Shown here in pieces: positions 22,641 to 58,956 of a stretch of 64,000 nucleotides of DNA. Source of the stretch: Verrucomicrobiota bacterium. GTDB taxonomy: Bacteria; Verrucomicrobiota; Verrucomicrobiia; Limisphaerales; UBA11358. The DNA lies in the NCBI GenBank assembly GCA_050010435.1, contig JBEKKZ010000002.1, positions 64-64,063 of the forward strand, in the 5' to 3' direction. Both the position numbers and the translations under genes were made by a program. The notes below the pieces were generated by a model. That model was not told the origin of the DNA. It was given only the letters and a program-made list of their open reading frames with translations, and searched no databases. Each line of letters begins with the position of its first letter. Position 1 is the stretch's first letter.

Positions 22641-23129
22641 ATGGCGCTATACAAAGGTCGTTTGTTTCGTCCGGTGCTTTGGTTGGCGCTGCTGATCATC
22701 GCCATGTTTTCCTCAGGTTGCCGAACGACAACCGAGACTTTACTATTCACCACCTCCGGCCCGGGTTGGCACGCGCAGGAAGGGCAGGCCCTCTGGCGGC
22801 CGGGCCGCGGGTTGCCGGAGTTGGGCGGAGACTTGGTGATGGTCAGCCACGAGGACGGACGGTGCGCCATCGAGTTTGCGAAAACGCCGCTGTCGCTGGT
22901 TTCGGCCCAAACGACCCGCACCAATTGGCTGATCCAATTCCCGGCGGGCCGAATGGGCTTCACCGGGCGCCGGCAACCGCCGGCCCGCTTTGCCTGGCTT
23001 TATCTGCATGCGGCCCTTTCCGGGGAACCGCTCCCTCCGCCGTTGCGTTTTGAGCGCAAACCGGATGGCGGCTGGCGGCTGGAAAACACCCGCACGGGAG
23101 AAACCCTGGAAGGCTTCCTCGCGCCGTGA
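22641..23129 (+). CDS. Putative lipoprotein (first gene of the lipid cluster)
   Basis: Hydrophobic leader with lipobox-like FSSGC; overlaps the MMPL gene (GTGA). Confidence 0.75.
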   Translation: MALYKGRLFRPVLWLALLIIAMFSSGCRTTTETLLFTTSGPGWHAQEGQALWRPGRGLPELGGDLVMVSHEDGRCAIEFAKTPLSLVSAQTTRTNWLIQFPAGRMGFTGRRQPPARFAWLYLHAALSGEPLPPPLRFERKPDGGWRLENTRTGETLEGFLAP

Positions 23130-26100
23130 GTCTGTTCCTGAAACGCTGGTGGTGGGCCTTGCTCACGGTGGCGGTCGGCCTCGGACTGTGCCGGCTCCGG
23201 TTTGATGTGGACATCCTCAATCTGCTGCCGCCGGACGAACCGACGGTCCAGGGACTGAAACTTTACCAGCAGCATTTCGCCAACGCGCGGGAACTGGTCA
23301 TCACCCTCCGCGCCCCGGACGCCGAACGGGCCGTGCGGCTGGCGGATGCGCTGGCGGCCCGCCTGCGGCAGCAGACGAACCTGGTCGCCACGGTGTCATG
23401 GCAGCCGCCGTGGATGGAAAATCCGGGTCAGATGGCCGAACTGCTCGGCTGCCTGTGGCTCAATCAACCGCCGGAATCCTTCGCTGCCCTCACCAACCGG
23501 CTGGCACCCGACCAACTGAAGTCCGTGCTGACCCAAACCAAGGAAATACTCGCGACTTCCATGTCGCCAATGGACATCGCCCGGCGCGCCTTTGACCCGT
23601 TCGATTTGTTAAACCTGCCGACGCTCATCAACTTCAGCGGCTTTTCCATGGAACAGGGACAGCAAATGTTTGCCTCTTCGGAGGGGAACTTCCGCCTGGT
23701 GTTCGTGCAATCCGGCGTGGACCTGTCCGGCTATCGCGCGTGCGAGAGCTGGTTGAAATCCATCCGGGCGGTGGTGACCAGCCTGCGGGCAGAGCAACCA
23801 AAGGCGGACTGGGACGGCGTCGTGGTCCATTACACCGGCCGTCCGGTTTTTGTGACGGAAATCGCCGGAAGCATGCAGCACGACATGAGCGGTTCGGTGG
23901 CCGGGACGACCATCATCATTGCCCTGCTGTTCTGGCTGACGCACCGGCGCTGGCTGCCGATGTTCTGGTTGTTGACCTTGCTGGGGTTGATTTTGGGCGC
24001 AACGCTGGCGTTGGGCGGGCTGGTGCTGGGGGCCATCAGCGTGGTGAGCATGGGCTTTGCCGCCGTGCTGCTCGGCCTGGCGGTGGATTATGCCGTGGTG
24101 CATTACCAGGAAGCACTGGCGCACCCGCAATTGTCCGTGCCGGAAATCCGCCGGGCCATCGCGCCGAGCATTCTGTGGGCGGCCATCACCACGATGAGCG
24201 CGTTCCTGGTTTTGAATTTGGGCGGTTTGCCCGGCCTGGGACAACTGGGCACGCTCGTGGCCATCGGGGTCGGCCTGGCGGCGCTGGTCATGGTGATGAT
24301 TTATCTGCCGCCGTTGTTTCCGAACCGCCGGAAGCCGCCTCCGGCCCAAACGCCACCCCGCTGGTGGAGTTATTTTGTCCCGCCGCAGGAACCGCCGGCG
24401 GCCGGGATTGCGCCGGCAAAACAATCCTGCCGCACTGCCTTGGTGTTGACCGGCCTGGTTTTGTTCGCAACGGGCGCGGTGCTGTGCTTTCACCGGCCCG
24501 GGCTGGACCGAAGCGGTAACGCCCTGCGCCCGCAGCGCGGCGAGGCGGAGACGGCGCTCGACGAAATCAAGTCTGCGATGGGACTGCCGCCGGACCCGCT
24601 CTGGCTGATCATCTCCGGCCGGGATGAGCCGGAAGTCTATCGGCGGCTTTGCCTTGCCGAAGGGGTGCTCAACGACGCGGTTTCCAATCACGTCATCGGC
24701 CGGTATCTGCTGCCGACCGCGCTGTGGCCGCGGGCCGAGTTACAGGCGGCGAACCGGGCGACGGCGGCCATTCTGGGAAAACAAGGCCCGGTGCTGCGGG
24801 AGGCGGCGCTGCGCGAAGGTTTCAACACCAACGCCCTGGTTCTGACCGAGGAACTGGTGCGGACCTGGGCGCGCGCCGGCGCCAGCGCCGGCGTGGTCTG
24901 GCCAACCAACCAGGTGAGCCAGTGGCTGTTGAAACGGTTCGTGGCGCGCACGCCCGACGAATGGCTGGTGATGGGCTTGATTTATCCGGCGACCAACCGG
25001 GTTGAGGCCGCTTCCCTGGCCGGCTTGTCCGCCCGGCTGGCCGAAAACCGGGCGTTGCTTTCCGGTTGGGAACTGCTCGGGAGCACGACACTCAAGCGGG
25101 TGCAGGCAAGAATGTGGCAGGTGGTGACGCCCATGGTTGTCCTCGTGCTGGCTTCGCTCTGGTTCGCCTTCCGCCGGCCAACCGAGATCCTGCTGGGCGC
25201 GGCGGTGTTGGTACTGAGCGGACTGTGCCTGCTGGCGACGATGGCGGTTGCGGGCTGGTCCTGGAACCTGATGAATCTCATGGCCCTGCCCCTGATGCTG
25301 GGTGCGGGGGTGGACTACACCATTTTCATCCAACTGGCCTTGCGCCGGCACGGTGGTGACCTCGGCCTGGTCCGGCGCTCCGTCGGACGCGCGTTGATGT
25401 TGTGCGGTGGCACCGCCATGGCCGGGTTCGGCTCGCTGGGATGGTCCAGCAATCCCGGCATGGCCAGCCTGGGCAGGGTGTGCGCCGTCGGCATCGGCGC
25501 CAACATGATCATTTCCGTGTTTCTGCTCCCCGCCTGGTGGACGTGGTTGAATCAGAAGGCAGAAAGAAATCCGAAATCCGAATGCCGAAATCCGAAAGAA
25601 GCCCGAACTCCGAATTCCGAGAACGGCGACAGGCCATCACGCGCAGCGTCAGGCCCTGCCCTCAACCCTCAACCACCCGTCCTCCATAGCCCCGGCGACG
25701 GAGGATCAACTCTCAACTCCTCATCTTTCTATCGCGCCAGCCTGTGGCGTTTCGGCCTGGCCGTCGTGCGGATCCTGCCACCGGGATTGGTGAAGGGCTT
25801 TTCCATAATCGTGGCCGAGTTTTATTTTCTTTTCCGCCGCCAGCGCCGCGAGGTGGTGGTGCAAAATTTTCTGCCCGCCTTTGCCGGCGACCGGGCCGCC
25901 GCCGAAAAGGCCGCCCACCGGCTCCATCGGAAATTCGCCCTGAAACTGGTGGACCTGTGGCGCGTCGAGGGCGGTGTGCCGGTGCAAAACTGGCTGACCA
26001 ACCCAGGCGAGCTGGAAATCATCCGGACCGCCCAGCAACGCGGCTGCGGCATCCTTTTCATCACGCTCCACCTTGGCAATTGGGAGCATGGCGGCCTGTT

Positions 26101-57949: not shown

Positions 57950-58681
57950 ATGAGCTTGCGCGTCATTTTGATTACCGGTGCCAATGGCGGCCTCGGCCAG
58001 GCGACCGCACAAGCCTTTCTTCAAGAGTCGCCCACCAATCATGTCTGGCTCGGTGTTTATACCCATCGTGAGCACGCGGACAAACTGGCCAATGAGAATC
58101 CCGGCCGTTGTTTTTGCGTTTCGCTGGACGTGACCCGGCCGGATTCCTGGAAACAAGCGGTTGCTGAAATCCTTGCCCGTCATAATCGTCTGGACGTGCT
58201 GGTGAACAATGCCGGCAGTCACCAGGATGCCTTGCTGGCCATGATGCCGCCGGATTCCTGGCGGCGGGTTCTCGCGACGAATCTCGATGGGGTTTTTCAC
58301 GGCTGCCAGGCCGTGCTGCCAACGATGATCAGCCAGCGCAGTGGGCGGATCATCAATATCGCATCGCTTAGCGCGCTGCTGGCGCCCGCCGGCCAGACCA
58401 ACTATGCGGCAGCCAAGGCGGGTGTGGTTGCCTTGACCCAGTCGCTGGCAAAAGAGGTGGGTCGGATCGGAATCACCGTCAATGCGGTCTGCCCGGGTTA
58501 TGTGGACACGGAGACGCTTGCGGTCCTGGGCGAAGCTGAGCGCCGGCGCGCCCTGGAGCGGATTCCGATGCGGCGTTTTGGGCAGCCGGGCGAAGTTGCC
58601 GCGGCGATCCGCTTTTTGGCTTGCGCCGAAGCCGGGTACATCACAGGCTCCACGCTTAAAATTGACGGTGGCATCTTCTAA
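57950..58681 (+). CDS. 3-oxoacyl-ACP reductase (FabG-like SDR)
   Basis: ITGANGGLG, LVNNAG, NYAAAK, VNAVCPG, IDGG. Confidence 0.92.
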   Translation: MSLRVILITGANGGLGQATAQAFLQESPTNHVWLGVYTHREHADKLANENPGRCFCVSLDVTRPDSWKQAVAEILARHNRLDVLVNNAGSHQDALLAMMPPDSWRRVLATNLDGVFHGCQAVLPTMISQRSGRIINIASLSALLAPAGQTNYAAAKAGVVALTQSLAKEVGRIGITVNAVCPGYVDTETLAVLGEAERRRALERIPMRRFGQPGEVAAAIRFLACAEAGYITGSTLKIDGGIF

Positions 58682-58956
58682 TGAACAACACGGCGGAACT
58701 CAAAACCCAAATCAAACACCTGCTGGTGGAGAACCTCATGCTCCAATCCCAGGCGGAGGAAATCGCGGACGACCTGCCGCTTTTTGGTCCCGGCGGTTTG
58801 GGTTTGGATTCTGTCGATGCACTCCAACTCGTTGTTGCACTCGATAAAAATTATGGGTTGAAAATCCCTGATCCGGAAGCGGCCAAAAAAGTCCTGCATA
58901 GTGTCAACACCATCGTGGCGGCGCTGGAACAGCGTTTATCCGGTCAACCTCACTGA
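58681..58956 (+). CDS. Acyl carrier protein (aryl-polyene-cluster type)
   Basis: PLFGPGGLGLDSVDALQL. Confidence 0.92.
   Translation: MNNTAELKTQIKHLLVENLMLQSQAEEIADDLPLFGPGGLGLDSVDALQLVVALDKNYGLKIPDPEAAKKVLHSVNTIVAALEQRLSGQPH

Follow-up and report, generated by a model that had tools for sequence, protein, structure and literature searches.

The described systems with which we compare the locus discussed here are the aryl-polyene (APE) clusters, represented in our comparisons by the ape locus of E. coli CFT073, and the candidate ladderane clusters of anammox bacteria, which, in the extracts of these papers that were available, carry B12 radical SAM and phytoene-desaturase-like genes (Rattray 2009, Javidpour 2016). 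For Kuenenia, the available extracts list ACP, FabZ, FabF, a non-canonical FabF, a phytoene desaturase-like protein, a radical SAM protein, a glycosyltransferase and a phenylacetyl-CoA ligase (PMC4790861, PMC2649909), and in the accessible parts of this literature ladderanes are reported from anammox bacteria only, and it is unproven that these genes act in making them. Clusters labelled 'ladderane' by antiSMASH have already been reported in Verrucomicrobiota, in the available extracts with no assigned function (PMC8692599, PMC9902471).

The DNA analysed here (the window, 64,000 nucleotides from a peat Verrucomicrobium) carries a probable accessory lipid locus with an unrelated island in its middle. 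An earlier note had read positions 22641 to 58956 as one large APE- or ladderane-like cluster, and every gene class that it named is indeed in the window, as judged by Pfam, NCBIfam, BLASTP and fold searches; what does not hold is the continuity of the cluster, since 40477 to 50890 (10,414 bp, 29% of the span) is an unrelated insertion. At 23126/23129, 27543/27546 and 34192/34195 the stop codon of one gene overlaps the start codon of the next. We call the locus accessory because, of the 301 genomes sampled across the order, 10 match its condensation-like profile at E<=1e-40, and in the genus 3 of 7 do, its own genome being included in both counts. What varies least in the locus is a cassette of five genes:

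32564 to 32839, plus strand: carrier protein ACP1 (PF00550, 1.2e-7), with a DSF stretch whose Ser we take to be the phosphopantetheine site
32855 to 34195, plus strand: stand-alone condensation-fold enzyme, 446 aa (AF2 and Foldseek)
34192 to 35592, plus strand: B12-binding radical SAM protein 2, rSAM2 (PF04055 and PF02310; CxxxCxxC motif CPFQCIYC)
35553 to 36881, plus strand: FAD-dependent oxidoreductase (PF12831, 4.6e-78)
37463 to 38914, plus strand: adenylate-forming ligase 1, the cassette ligase (PF00501, 1.2e-58; PF13193)

The second of these matches no Pfam and no NCBIfam model, and its class, correctly guessed in the earlier note, comes from a predicted structure of moderate confidence (pLDDT 65.4, pTM 0.68, with 132 of the 446 residues below pLDDT 50), in which it takes a condensation-domain fold. 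Foldseek against the PDB gave 251 of 500 counted matches at E<=1e-3, headed by AzeD (1.1e-15) and the SrfA-C C domain (2.1e-15), and the model resembles NRPS C domains, SgcC5 and WS/DGAT at E of about 1e-15. An H143-x3-D147-x2-G150 motif is invariant in 20 of 20 orthologues, the family comprises 886 representative clusters at E<=1e-3, and one member (P0018) is an ACP-condensation fusion. As for rSAM2, the comparison with TIGR04072 (a model named rSAM_ladder_B12) that the earlier note proposed has given a divided answer: at 342.9 bits the score falls just short of the cut-off, which is 360, but in the tree the protein lies inside a 17-row clade (SH-aLRT 99) that holds above-cut-off members of TIGR04072 and two Brocadia proteins scoring 338.7 and 333.2 bits. 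By sequence it belongs, as a divergent member, to the TIGR04072 clade, and the solved structure closest to it is that of TsrM (6wte, 1.3e-36). Matches of the FAD oxidoreductase to PDB sequences are restricted to its N-terminal FAD-binding stretch, while ligase 1, whose top NCBIfam match is a long-chain fatty-acid CoA ligase at 262.9 bits (under cut-off), has SGTTG, TGD and SSGK stretches that are presumably its adenylation core motifs.

Chain building appears to belong to a second group of genes at the far end of the locus:

52943 to 54328, minus strand: adenylate-forming ligase 2 (PF00501, 3.6e-20; PF13193, 5.1e-10)
54495 to 55247, minus strand: family 2 glycosyltransferase (GT2), 250 aa (PF00535, 9.1e-26)
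55639 to 56880, plus strand: ketosynthase, KS (PF00109, PF02801)
56871 to 57911, plus strand: KS-like, probably chain-length-factor-like (CLF) partner, apparently lacking the catalytic residues (NF005490 only, 1.6e-6)
57785 to 58681, plus strand: FabG-type ketoreductase (PF13561, 9.9e-56), true start probably near 57950
58681 to 58956, plus strand: carrier protein ACP2 (PF00550, 1.1e-6), with a DSV stretch whose Ser is presumably the phosphopantetheine site

The GT2 gene that had been claimed is present on the minus strand; the plus-strand frames 54343-54594 and 54591-55295 match no family, and their translations are rich in arginine. Several of these proteins fall under the cut-offs of their best models: the KS scores 345.7 bits with the FabF model against a cut-off of 493.75, the FabG-type protein 249.5 bits with TIGR01830 against 297.75, and ACP2 47.1 bits with NF006617, its top NCBIfam match, against 70. 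In the KS, Cys172, His305 and His342 align at the active-site positions and are invariant in 6 of 6 orthologues. For its partner, the NF005490 match at E=1.6e-6 and a MAFFT alignment read by hand suggest a relationship in which the Cys has become Pro, one His Gly or Leu and the other His Glu; profile-profile comparison returned a probability of 0.6%, the predicted fold has a pLDDT of 35, and PF00109 is precomputed on 5 among the 120 homologues listed.

The likeness to APE clusters proposed in the earlier note is real, nine window proteins matching E. coli CFT073 ape-locus proteins by BLASTP. Identities are 24% for the MMPL transporter (8.6e-10), 24.6% over 337 residues for ligase 2 against the acyl-CoA synthetase (1.6e-7), 32% for the GT2 (5.6e-23), 34% for the FabG-type protein against FabG2 (3.9e-43) and 37% for ACP2 against a carrier protein, and the likeness is weak for the LolA-like (2.5e-4) and FabZ-type (2.4e-4) proteins. 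KS phylogeny, another check that had been suggested, agrees: the window KS, both ape KSs and the KSs of TIGR04072-bearing clusters form a 13-row clade (95/91, UFBoot/SH-aLRT), with the anammox paralogues and housekeeping FabF outside it, in a tree that took in a single characterised APE cluster. The window's own clade is supported at 100/100, and its sister, weakly supported (85/77), is one of the E. coli ape KSs. Because its identity to the ape KSs of E. coli is no more than 34-39%, we place this KS outside any characterised cluster.

Export and envelope functions are suggested by the genes that open the locus, and these are followed by several of narrower distribution:

22641 to 23129, plus strand: orf162, a small lipoprotein and the first gene of the cluster (signal peptide and lipobox FSSGC)
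23126 to 26593, plus strand: MMPL/RND-type transporter fused to an LpxL/HtrB-type lipid acyltransferase, 1155 aa (PF03176, 1.1e-26; PF03279, 1.2e-21)
26554 to 27546, plus strand: LolA-like periplasmic carrier (PF03548, 3.6e-14), true start probably later than 26554
27543 to 27995, plus strand: FabZ-type 3-hydroxyacyl-ACP dehydratase (PF07977, 1e-16)
28317 to 29018, plus strand: DUF4410-like secreted protein, accessory (PF14366, 6.6e-5, under cut-off)
29170 to 29997, plus strand: DUF8321/DUF8322 protein (ESM Atlas feature score 0.99 to the PF26995/PF26997 clusters)
30105 to 30455, minus strand: orf116, a small predicted membrane protein (hydrophobic stretches)
30754 to 32169, plus strand: B12-binding radical SAM protein 1, rSAM1, accessory (PF04055, 3.5e-14; PF02310, 1.5e-8; CxxxCxxC motif CPFHCEFC)
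38818 to 40476, plus strand: CrtI/carotenoid-isomerase-family flavoenzyme, accessory (PF01593, 6.7e-16), true start probably near 38980
50894 to 52810, minus strand: 638-aa alkaline-phosphatase/type I phosphodiesterase-family protein, accessory (PF01663, 2.5e-5; Atlas score 0.98 to a Phosphodiest cluster)

The lipoprotein predicted in the earlier note can be identified with orf162, which has no significant Pfam or NCBIfam family and in 10 of 29 related loci comes before the MMPL gene, most of the others ending short of there; the DUF4410-like reading frame, confined to the 5 closest of the 29, has no lipobox Cys in the frame read. NCBIfam gives the MMPL fusion weak matches to HpnN-type transporters, and gives under-cut-off matches to the LolA-like protein (NF053544 LolA2_flexi, 5.7e-17), many of whose orthologues align over the C-terminal ~60% only, to the FabZ-type protein (FabZ models, 7.7e-21), in which we take GHLPGEPILPG and LVEAGAQ to be the catalytic His and Glu motifs, and to the CrtI-family flavoenzyme (TIGR02730, 6e-34; TIGR02734, 1.5e-28). 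The DUF8321/DUF8322 gene, which has no match in the local Pfam copy, occurs in 17 of the 29 loci and orf116 is kept in 19, while rSAM1 reaches only 96 bits on TIGR04072 and sits in a separate clade from rSAM2.

Two stretches lie outside the pathway:

37021 to 37419, plus strand: four-helix-bundle gene, a small variable insert (PF05635, 4.6e-17)
40477 to 50890: strain-specific 10.4 kb island, missing from relatives

The first is found in 8 of the 29 loci at 78-99% identity, at least as high as that of the flanking genes in 7 of the 8, and peat-metagenome contigs skip 396-485 nt at this point. The island holds unrelated, strain-specific genes of defence type, namely an AP2-like reading frame, RhuM, two unknown frames, a 1489-aa DrmMI/type IIG-like methylase and a small two-gene cassette, with PADLOC reporting PDC-S05 (1.3e-144) and DrmMI (1.1e-90). 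Its GC drops to 0.51-0.55, and it contains 70-nt inverted repeats (40710-40779 and 50512-50581) with no other copies elsewhere in the genome. At the same junction relatives have 35 bp (L004) or about 50-60 bp (L018, L019), and the phosphodiesterase-family gene adjoins the CrtI-like gene in L004, L018 and L029.

The conservation of the cassette is best seen in the 29 related loci, which were retrieved with rSAM2 as query, so that its own count of 29 of 29 holds by construction. The condensation-like gene is in all 29, the flavoprotein and ligase 1 in 27 each and ACP1 in 26, and the misses, including all three of ACP1, fall at cut locus ends with the single exception of L019, which is without the flavoprotein. 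Within the 10 kb flank ligase 2 appears in 15 of the 29 and the KS, where the flank reaches, in 7. The phosphodiesterase-family gene, rSAM1 (8 of 29) and the CrtI-like gene (13 of 29) are accessory, many orthologous loci being without them, and because the last two are so often missing we abandon the idea that a 'ladderane-like' pairing of radical SAM and CrtI forms a conserved core. Looking deeper, at 11 neighbourhoods of distant condensation-like homologues in other Verrucomicrobiota families, we find an ACP1-like gene beside the homologue in 7, a ligase in 7, a KS in 5, an rSAM2-like gene in 4 (three of whose products exceed the TIGR04072 cut-off, with 425-533 bits) and a GT2 in 3; the cassette recurs with KS/CLF and GT2 genes across these families, and in L092 a KS, two radical SAM proteins, GT2, ACP, another KS, CLF, the condensation-like gene and a ligase lie within 12 kb. 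Two RNA libraries contain contigs on cluster genes at 90-99% likeness, a weak hint only, since such libraries can contain DNA.

The earlier note had named unlinked halves in other genomes as a finding that would tell against it, and here the picture is mixed. The cassette and KS halves are adjacent in most relatives, and all four of the close relatives retain both in the genome; rSAM2 and KS are nevertheless 164.5 kb apart in one of these (G706) and on separate contigs in another (G705), so physical linkage is not obligatory. We have asked whether the span combines at least two unconnected pathways that are no more than neighbours: a module for exporting an envelope lipid, a small carrier-protein cassette with its own product and a KS/CLF unit. 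The parts are indeed separate transcription units on both strands, three loci (L015, L028, L029) have the cassette with no MMPL, LolA or FabZ gene recognisable over the 8 kb before it, and the junction after the CrtI-like gene accommodates insertions of 8-15 kb. Set against the adjacency just described, and the same gene set shuffled and more tightly packed in other families (L092, L094, L095), this strikes us as an improbable account.

It is also unlikely, in our view, that this is an ordinary APE pigment cluster whose product, like that of E. coli or Vibrio, is a lipid-anchored aryl polyene carboxylate, with the radical SAM cassette merely decorating it, for example by replacing a SAM methyltransferase. 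The KS placement fits, as do the homologues of the ape ligase, GT2, MMPL, LolA-like protein, reductase, carrier proteins and one dehydratase, and the missing ApeB-type methyltransferase would leave room for a radical SAM methylase; yet by BLASTP the window has no counterpart of the ape thioesterase, DUF3261 protein, second dehydratase or second KS either, no aryl-starter supply gene was seen in it, identities to ape proteins are 24-39%, and the five-gene cassette, the best-conserved part here, is wholly missing from the E. coli locus. Kinship with the candidate ladderane pathway of anammox bacteria, or with the polyunsaturated-hydrocarbon pathway of Desulfotalea, where radical SAM and CrtI-like enzymes would desaturate and cyclise a fatty acyl chain, could draw on the rSAM2 clade shared with Brocadia, the Kuenenia gene list and the antiSMASH labels mentioned above. 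We think it very unlikely: the KS stands apart from the anammox paralogues, the CrtI-like and rSAM1 genes are patchy, the two short Brocadia contigs (12.7 and 8.3 kb) share no further gene with the window at E<=1e-5, the radical SAM loci of Desulfobacterota, Bacteroidales and anammox bacteria lack a condensation-like homologue within 10 kb, and even in anammox bacteria, from which alone ladderanes are reported, the part played by such genes is itself unproven in the literature as available.

We prefer a single exported lipid pathway, every chemical step of which we infer from the gene families. Ligase 2 would load a carboxylic-acid starter onto a carrier protein, and the KS, its inactive partner and the FabG-like and FabZ-like enzymes, a reductase and a dehydratase, would lengthen it into an unsaturated chain carried by ACP2. 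Within the cassette, ligase 1 would load ACP1, cobalamin-dependent rSAM2 might methylate or otherwise alter the tethered substrate (its nearest solved relative, TsrM, being a C-methyltransferase) and the flavoprotein might oxidise or desaturate it, before the stand-alone condensation-type enzyme formed an ester or amide bond between a carrier-bound acyl group and a second unit. The GT2 and the LpxL-type acyltransferase domain could then attach the product to a glyco- or lipid anchor, and the MMPL pump, LolA-like protein and lipoprotein would carry it to the outer membrane, with rSAM1, the CrtI-like enzyme and the phosphodiesterase-family protein as optional decorations. The earlier suggestion of an acyl chain linked to a second unit and exported as a glycolipid of the outer membrane is a reasonable one, and on balance we consider it probable that the locus, a conserved accessory one in peat and soil Verrucomicrobiota and here interrupted by an island, provides for an exported specialised lipid through APE-type (type II PKS/FAS-like) machinery.

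On sequence comparison, the span from 22641 to 58956 appears to be an aryl-polyene (APE)-type lipid cluster carrying an uncharacterised cassette of carrier protein, condensation-type enzyme and B12-binding radical SAM (rSAM) protein. Scans of the long ORFs with Pfam and NCBIfam confirmed the gene list of the earlier note, which was largely right overall, with gene content as its strong side and an overlooked island of 10.4 kb as its weak one. The glycosyltransferase (GT2) came to light only on the minus-strand scan, the plus-strand ORFs that cover its site being spurious frames.

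Genes of the span (coordinates, strand, assignment and its source)
22641-23129, plus: lipobox protein orf162 (lipobox)
23126-26593, plus: MMPL transporter fused to an LpxL-type acyltransferase (Pfam/NCBIfam)
26554-27546, plus: LolA-like protein (Pfam/NCBIfam)
27543-27995, plus: FabZ (Pfam/NCBIfam)
28317-29018, plus: DUF4410-like ORF (Pfam/NCBIfam)
29170-29997, plus: DUF8321/8322 protein (Atlas)
30105-30455, minus: small membrane ORF
30754-32169, plus: first B12-binding rSAM protein, rSAM1 (Pfam/NCBIfam)
32564-32839, plus: carrier protein ACP1 (Pfam/NCBIfam)
32855-34195, plus: 446-aa ORF of no family (no Pfam/NCBIfam match)
34192-35592, plus: second B12-binding rSAM protein, rSAM2 (Pfam/NCBIfam)
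35553-36881, plus: flavoprotein (PF12831)
37021-37419, plus: four-helix-bundle gene (PF05635)
37463-38914, plus: ligase 1 (Pfam/NCBIfam)
38818-40476, plus: CrtI-family flavoenzyme (Pfam/NCBIfam)
50894-52810, minus: 638-aa phosphodiesterase-family gene (Pfam/NCBIfam)
52943-54328, minus: ligase 2 (Pfam/NCBIfam)
54495-55247, minus: GT2 (minus-strand scan only)
55639-56880, plus: ketosynthase (KS), divergent from the minus-strand trio of 638-aa gene, ligase 2 and GT2
56871-57911, plus: KS-like partner (NF005490 at 1.6e-6 only)
57785-58681, plus: FabG (Pfam/NCBIfam)
58681-58956, plus: carrier protein ACP2 (Pfam/NCBIfam)

The span is flanked by TilS and an S53 protease upstream and by PNPase and polyprenyl synthase downstream, and none of these found a match in 29 related loci at the thresholds used, many of those loci ending before the outer ends of the cluster. 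The protease just upstream of TilS is of the sedolisin/kumamolisin type (17954-21100; 1048 aa), has BACON and Ig-like domains, and bears no relation to the cluster.

Among the nearest known systems is the ape locus of E. coli CFT073 (NC_004431.1, ~1,143,700-1,158,750). Each of the two loci pairs a KS with a non-catalytic partner and has a reductase (FabG-type), a dehydratase (FabZ/FabA-type) and small ACPs; each also carries an adenylate-forming ligase adjoining a GT2, along with an MMPL pump, a LolA-like protein and a lipid acyltransferase. By BLASTP, the window KS matches the two ape KSs at 34% (1.9e-63) and 39% (1.4e-55) identity, FabG the ape reductase at 34% (3.9e-43), GT2 its namesake at 32% (5.6e-23), MMPL at 24% (8.6e-10), ACP2 the ape carrier protein at 37% (1.3e-9) and ligase 2 the ape ligase at 25% (1.6e-7), with weak matches for the LolA-like protein (2.5e-4), FabZ (2.4e-4) and ACP1 (5.8e-4). 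The anchoring and export set of acyltransferase, GT2, MMPL and LolA-like protein is present in full, at weak to moderate similarity to the E. coli proteins. There are clear departures on both sides. No BLASTP match tied a window protein to the ape thioesterase, methyltransferase, DUF3261 protein, second dehydratase, CLF or acyltransferase; the window acyltransferase comes from a different Pfam family (PF03279) and forms one protein with the pump. The window lacks the thioesterase, SAM methyltransferase, DUF3261 protein, second KS and second dehydratase of the E. coli locus, which in turn is without the B12 rSAM, condensation-type enzyme, PF12831 flavoprotein and CrtI-like gene that the window has. 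No gene for supply of an aryl starter was seen in the window.

The KS itself, which has Cys172, His305 and His342 aligned at the active-site positions, would be the single active KS of the window, against two in the E. coli ape locus. Its neighbour is the weakest assignment in the inventory because no usable fold model was obtained: the sole family match of this putative partner is NF005490 (1.6e-6), a MAFFT alignment puts Pro, Gly/Leu and Glu at the three catalytic positions, an AF2 model from a 26-row alignment reached pLDDT 35 and pTM 0.30, and profile-profile comparison with the KS gave a probability of 0.6% (E 0.1), the profiles being too shallow. The earlier note had proposed placing the KS among APE, ladderane and FabF clades, and here a careful tree of 31 rows, which includes one characterised APE cluster and leaves out the very long rows (Desulfobacterales KSb and VerrucoG175 KS), supersedes a quick and unresolved one of 19 rows. 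The window KS groups with four orthologues at 100/100 (UFBoot/SH-aLRT), as sister to one E. coli ape KS at 85/77, in a 13-row clade (95/91). The same clade takes in the second ape KS together with KSs from loci of other Verrucomicrobiota, Bacteroidales and Desulfobacterales that bear TIGR04072-type rSAMs. Among 16 anammox KS sequences from three genomes, FabF orthologues included, the paralogues fall in separate clades from the window KS: four form a clade sister to the 13 rows (86/85) and the remaining paralogues branch outside, while the housekeeping FabF of the window's own genome and of the anammox genomes lies outside the APE-type clade. The KS thus stands with the E. coli ape KSs, apart from the anammox paralogues and housekeeping FabF, and the tree suggests that it is of the aryl-polyene type. 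In the same genome, contig C4 (~179954-186032) holds one further KS that is not the housekeeping one. It scores 378.5 bits against the FabF model, and an open frame of 1978 aa ~4 kb away also matches a KS; the region is probably another PKS-type locus.

What sets the Verrucomicrobial version apart begins with the 446-aa protein. It has no match in Pfam or NCBIfam even at E<=5, PF00668 and PF03007 being absent, and a profile of its family drew only chance matches among PDB sequences (DNMT1 at E ~0.8). The family is unannotated, all named members being called 'hypothetical protein'; across 1.84 billion representatives a full HMMER scan counted 886 clusters at E<=1e-3, of which 303 reach E<=1e-30. 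The AF2 model has pLDDT 65.4 and pTM 0.68, and 132 of its 446 residues fall below 50. By Foldseek it resembles the condensation, cyclisation and epimerisation domains of NRPSs and also the free-standing AzeD, SgcC5, CmnI, TRI3 and WS/DGAT (E ~1e-15, TM 0.5-0.65, probability 1.00). The motif SWNH-x3-D-x2-G, which includes H143 and D147, is invariant in 20 of 20 orthologues. With fold matches and HxxxD motif in agreement, the call of a condensation-like enzyme in the earlier note was right. When 27 distant members from the best 150 listed were scanned, six gave sub-threshold PF00668 matches, and one, a metagenome protein of 542 aa (P0018), joins an ACP (PF00550) and the condensation-like enzyme in one naturally fused protein, which supports a carrier-dependent reaction. 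The nearest likeness is to the free-standing acyltransferases of the condensation superfamily, with SgcC5, WS/DGAT and NRPS starter C domains as examples: the model predicts the same two-lobed fold with a central HxxxD (Foldseek probability 1.00, TM 0.52-0.65), and, as with those enzymes, the gene adjoins genes for a carrier protein and an adenylating enzyme. It differs in its motif, N-H-x3-D-x2-G rather than HHxxxDG, and in a lipid/PKS rather than an NRPS context.

Next in line is rSAM2, for which TIGR04072 (rSAM_ladder_B12, 'lipid biosynthesis B12-binding/radical SAM protein') is by far the best model. The earlier note had raised this family for 34192-35592, and the two lines of evidence differ. 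The score, 342.9 bits (E 2.3e-102; 341.8 bits in the whole-genome scan), does not reach the curated cut-off of 360; the tree, by contrast, places the protein among members that lie above it. Of 12 B12-rSAM matches in the genome rSAM2 is the top one and none exceeds the cut-off. Proteins that score above it come from Desulfobacterota (379-400 bits), from one locus of Bacteroidales (409) and from three further families of Verrucomicrobiota (425-533). The runner-up model for rSAM2 is BzaD (181.8 bits, 2.7e-53), and rSAM1 reaches 96 bits on TIGR04072. In a quick tree of 33 sequences, with SH-aLRT support and no bootstrap, rSAM2 groups with six orthologues at 100% support, on a long branch (1.18), and this group nests in a 17-row clade (SH-aLRT 99) with seven sequences scoring 379-533 bits and two copies from Brocadia sp., and rSAM1 falls in a separate clade. 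We conclude that rSAM2 is a divergent member of the TIGR04072 clade. Among solved structures the cobalamin methyltransferase TsrM comes closest to it (1.3e-36), with AprD4 second. The role of TIGR04072 members in lipid biosynthesis is putative, and no paper naming the family was found in the literature searched. In Desulfobacterota, Bacteroidales and other Verrucomicrobiota they adjoin KS, FabG, GT2 and ACP genes.

The Brocadia copies (338.7 and 333.2 bits) are paralogues on two short contigs, L106 and L107, and no recognisable FAS genes or other window-like genes lie near them, which on such short contigs carries little weight; the other two anammox genomes searched, Scalindua and Brocadiaceae, gave no TIGR04072-like protein at E<=1e-60. 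Six anammox loci from a pattern scan (L051-L053, L058, L059 and L061) were dropped as comparators, the two that were checked, L051 and L052, being HpnJ/BchE-like rSAMs and not TIGR04072; none of the six has lipid genes within 10 kb.

How constant is this arrangement? With rSAM2 as query and up to 10 kb taken on each side, 29 orthologous loci were found, and the order of the five-gene cassette is kept: ACP1 in 26, the condensation-like gene in 29, rSAM2 (the query) in 29, and the flavoprotein and ligase 1 in 27 each, with every miss at a cut locus end except that of the flavoprotein in locus L019. Upstream, MMPL occurs in 14, LolA in 16, FabZ in 14 and DUF8321/8322 in 17; downstream, ligase 2 in 15, GT2 in 12 and KS in 7, these genes being present, in most loci, wherever the flank extends. 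Variable genes are rSAM1 (8), the CrtI-like gene (13), the 638-aa gene (4) and the DUF4410-like ORF (5), and rSAM1 is accompanied by a CrtI-like gene in all seven judgeable loci, the latter occurring without it in six. Around 11 distant condensation-like homologues from other families of the phylum, an ACP1-like gene and a ligase are each adjacent in 7, with a KS in 5, a TIGR04072-type rSAM in 4 and a GT2 in 3. The rSAM loci of Desulfobacterota, Bacteroidales and anammox bacteria have no condensation-like homologue within 10 kb, and in this the TIGR04072 loci outside Verrucomicrobiota differ from the window. What is constant in the Verrucomicrobial version, then, is a carrier-protein cassette with a condensation-type enzyme named by no family library, and what is optional is the second rSAM, the CrtI-like gene and the phosphodiesterase-family gene.

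Comparison with the candidate ladderane clusters of anammox bacteria is instructive in another way. For Kuenenia stuttgartiensis these are kuste2802-2805, 3603-3608 and 3335-3352, with syntenic loci in Desulfotalea psychrophila, and Rattray 2009 (PMC2649909) and Javidpour 2016 (PMC4790861) describe candidate genes and synteny with no proven function; ladderanes were not obtained when the Kuenenia genes were expressed heterologously, and CrtI activity was missing from kuste3336 and kuste3607 (PMC4790861, PMC2649909). As listed there, the Kuenenia and Desulfotalea sets share with the window an ACP, FabZ, FabF plus a non-canonical FabF, FabG, rSAM proteins including the B12 type, a phytoene-desaturase-like gene, a GT and an aryl/acyl-CoA ligase, and the anammox lists include neither a condensation-type enzyme nor MMPL/LolA export genes, all of which the window has. 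Its host is moreover a Verrucomicrobium and not an anammox bacterium, and its KS lies outside the anammox paralogue clades. The pairing of B12 rSAM with phytoene-desaturase-like genes in a FAS-like cluster is present, with the CrtI-like gene in only 13 of the 29 orthologous loci. PMC8692599 and PMC9902471 report antiSMASH 'ladderane' clusters in Verrucomicrobiota, including Pedosphaerales, and clusters labelled 'ladderane' or 'arylpolyene' in Verrucomicrobiota, Desulfobacterota and other phyla, without an assigned product. In the literature searched we found no paper linking aryl polyenes with cobalamin-dependent radical SAM or condensation enzymes, and none joining four of the five terms aryl polyene, radical SAM, condensation, LolA and MMPL.

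The cluster had been taken as a single uninterrupted one, and this did not hold. Window 38000-40475 aligns with 13768-16231 of the orthologous locus L004, and 50891-54280 with its 16267-19697, so that L004 has 35 bp where the window carries 10,414 bp; L018 and L019 likewise lack the island.

Genes of the island and alternative cargo at the same junction
40477-50890 (within): AP2-like ORF
40477-50890 (within): RhuM (PADLOC PDC-S05, 1.3e-144)
42763-44052 and 44080-45090, minus: two unknown ORFs of 429 and 336 aa
40477-50890 (within): 1489-aa methylase fusion (DrmMI 1.1e-90, type IIG 4.4e-46, Eco57I 3.3e-25)
~49800-50500, minus: small gene pair (weak DUF2204 match)
L001 16270-21398; L002 15723-21398; L005 15993-21398; contig C7 of close relative G706: alternative cargo after the CrtI-like gene

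The island sits between two convergent cluster genes, and its GC falls to 0.51-0.55. An inverted repeat of 70 nt (97%) bounds it, at 40710-40779 and 50512-50581, and has no further copy in the genome; neither an integrase nor a transposase was seen within the island. RhuM, the methylase and the two unknown ORFs were found in none of the 29 loci. After the CrtI-like gene the four closest relatives carry other DNA instead, the cargo at that junction comprising a Sel1-repeat gene, a DDE transposase with signal peptidase and pilin-like genes, or MoxR/DUF58/DUF4129 genes. Whole-genome searches put KS and rSAM2 21.4 kb apart in the window and 25.6, 19.0 and 164.5 kb apart in three of these relatives, the widest separation being that of one genome, and on different contigs in the fourth. 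Such differing cargo and distances mark the junction as a hot spot of insertion and rearrangement. Two independent peat DNA runs (X2 and X3) cover all 30 bins of 32500-52499, and no contig among those listed bridges either island junction, so that what backs the junctions is even DNA depth in both runs and the assembly. X2 and X3 both show a joint of 40745 to 50737 on opposite strands, for which the 70-nt inverted repeat is the probable cause. RNA-library contigs (90-99% alike) leave bins 43172-49174 almost bare; they may come from relatives without the island, and the bare bins therefore say nothing on its expression. The island shows that insertions can favour a biosynthetic locus as their hot spot, a point of importance when clusters are called automatically.

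Smaller elements were also seen. The PF05635 gene (37021-37419) lies between the flavoprotein and ligase genes in 8 of the 29 loci (L001, L004, L005, L010, L012, L013, L014 and L017), with an identity of 85-99% in seven of them, at or above that of flanking genes that drop to as little as 69-77% in five; contigs from peat leave out 396-485 nt precisely at this gene, its bin depth is 10-40x that of its neighbours in two DNA runs, and it behaves like a small mobile gene. A GC-rich repeat of ~30 nt at 40538-40569, intergenic and after the CrtI-like gene, recurs at more than 45 other sites on most contigs of the genome (59 blastn matches to the 235-nt segment that holds it) and looks like a REP-type element; at 49705-50888 another motif, CCGCGTAAAAG, is repeated.

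The host is an uncultured peat Verrucomicrobium with a genome of 3.82 Mb, 93% complete, in which the window is bases 64-64063 of contig C2, and the nearest public relatives of its genes come from MAGs labelled Verrucomicrobiota, Verrucomicrobiae or Limisphaerales. At E<=1e-40 the condensation-like profile hits 10 of 301 sampled genomes of the order and 3 of 7 of the genus, the own genome counted in both, and 6 of 200 high-quality genomes of the order: the trait is accessory within order and genus. A sampled stretch of 10 kb is at least partly present in 21 of the 23 sequencing-run rows listed, with at least half its words in 8, and the DNA runs that contain it are 14 peat metagenomes, from several studies, and one wetland metagenome. 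Since each protein search also listed at least 120 close orthologues (sequence clusters from public genomes and metagenomes), the encoded lipid may be a common envelope component of peat bacteria.

There is also a bolder idea, which we hold tentatively, thinking it rather unlikely as it stands: the five-gene cassette would be a new, self-contained lipid-tailoring unit, in which a C-methylated or radical-rearranged acyl or amino-acyl block is made on its own carrier and then esterified or amidated onto a polyene-type chain. Solving the rSAM step would in any case bear on the role of the related anammox enzymes. If the idea is true, these abundant peat Verrucomicrobiota would make a class of outer-membrane lipid not seen before, and the cassette would offer the first tractable handle on what TIGR04072-type enzymes do, those of anammox bacteria included.
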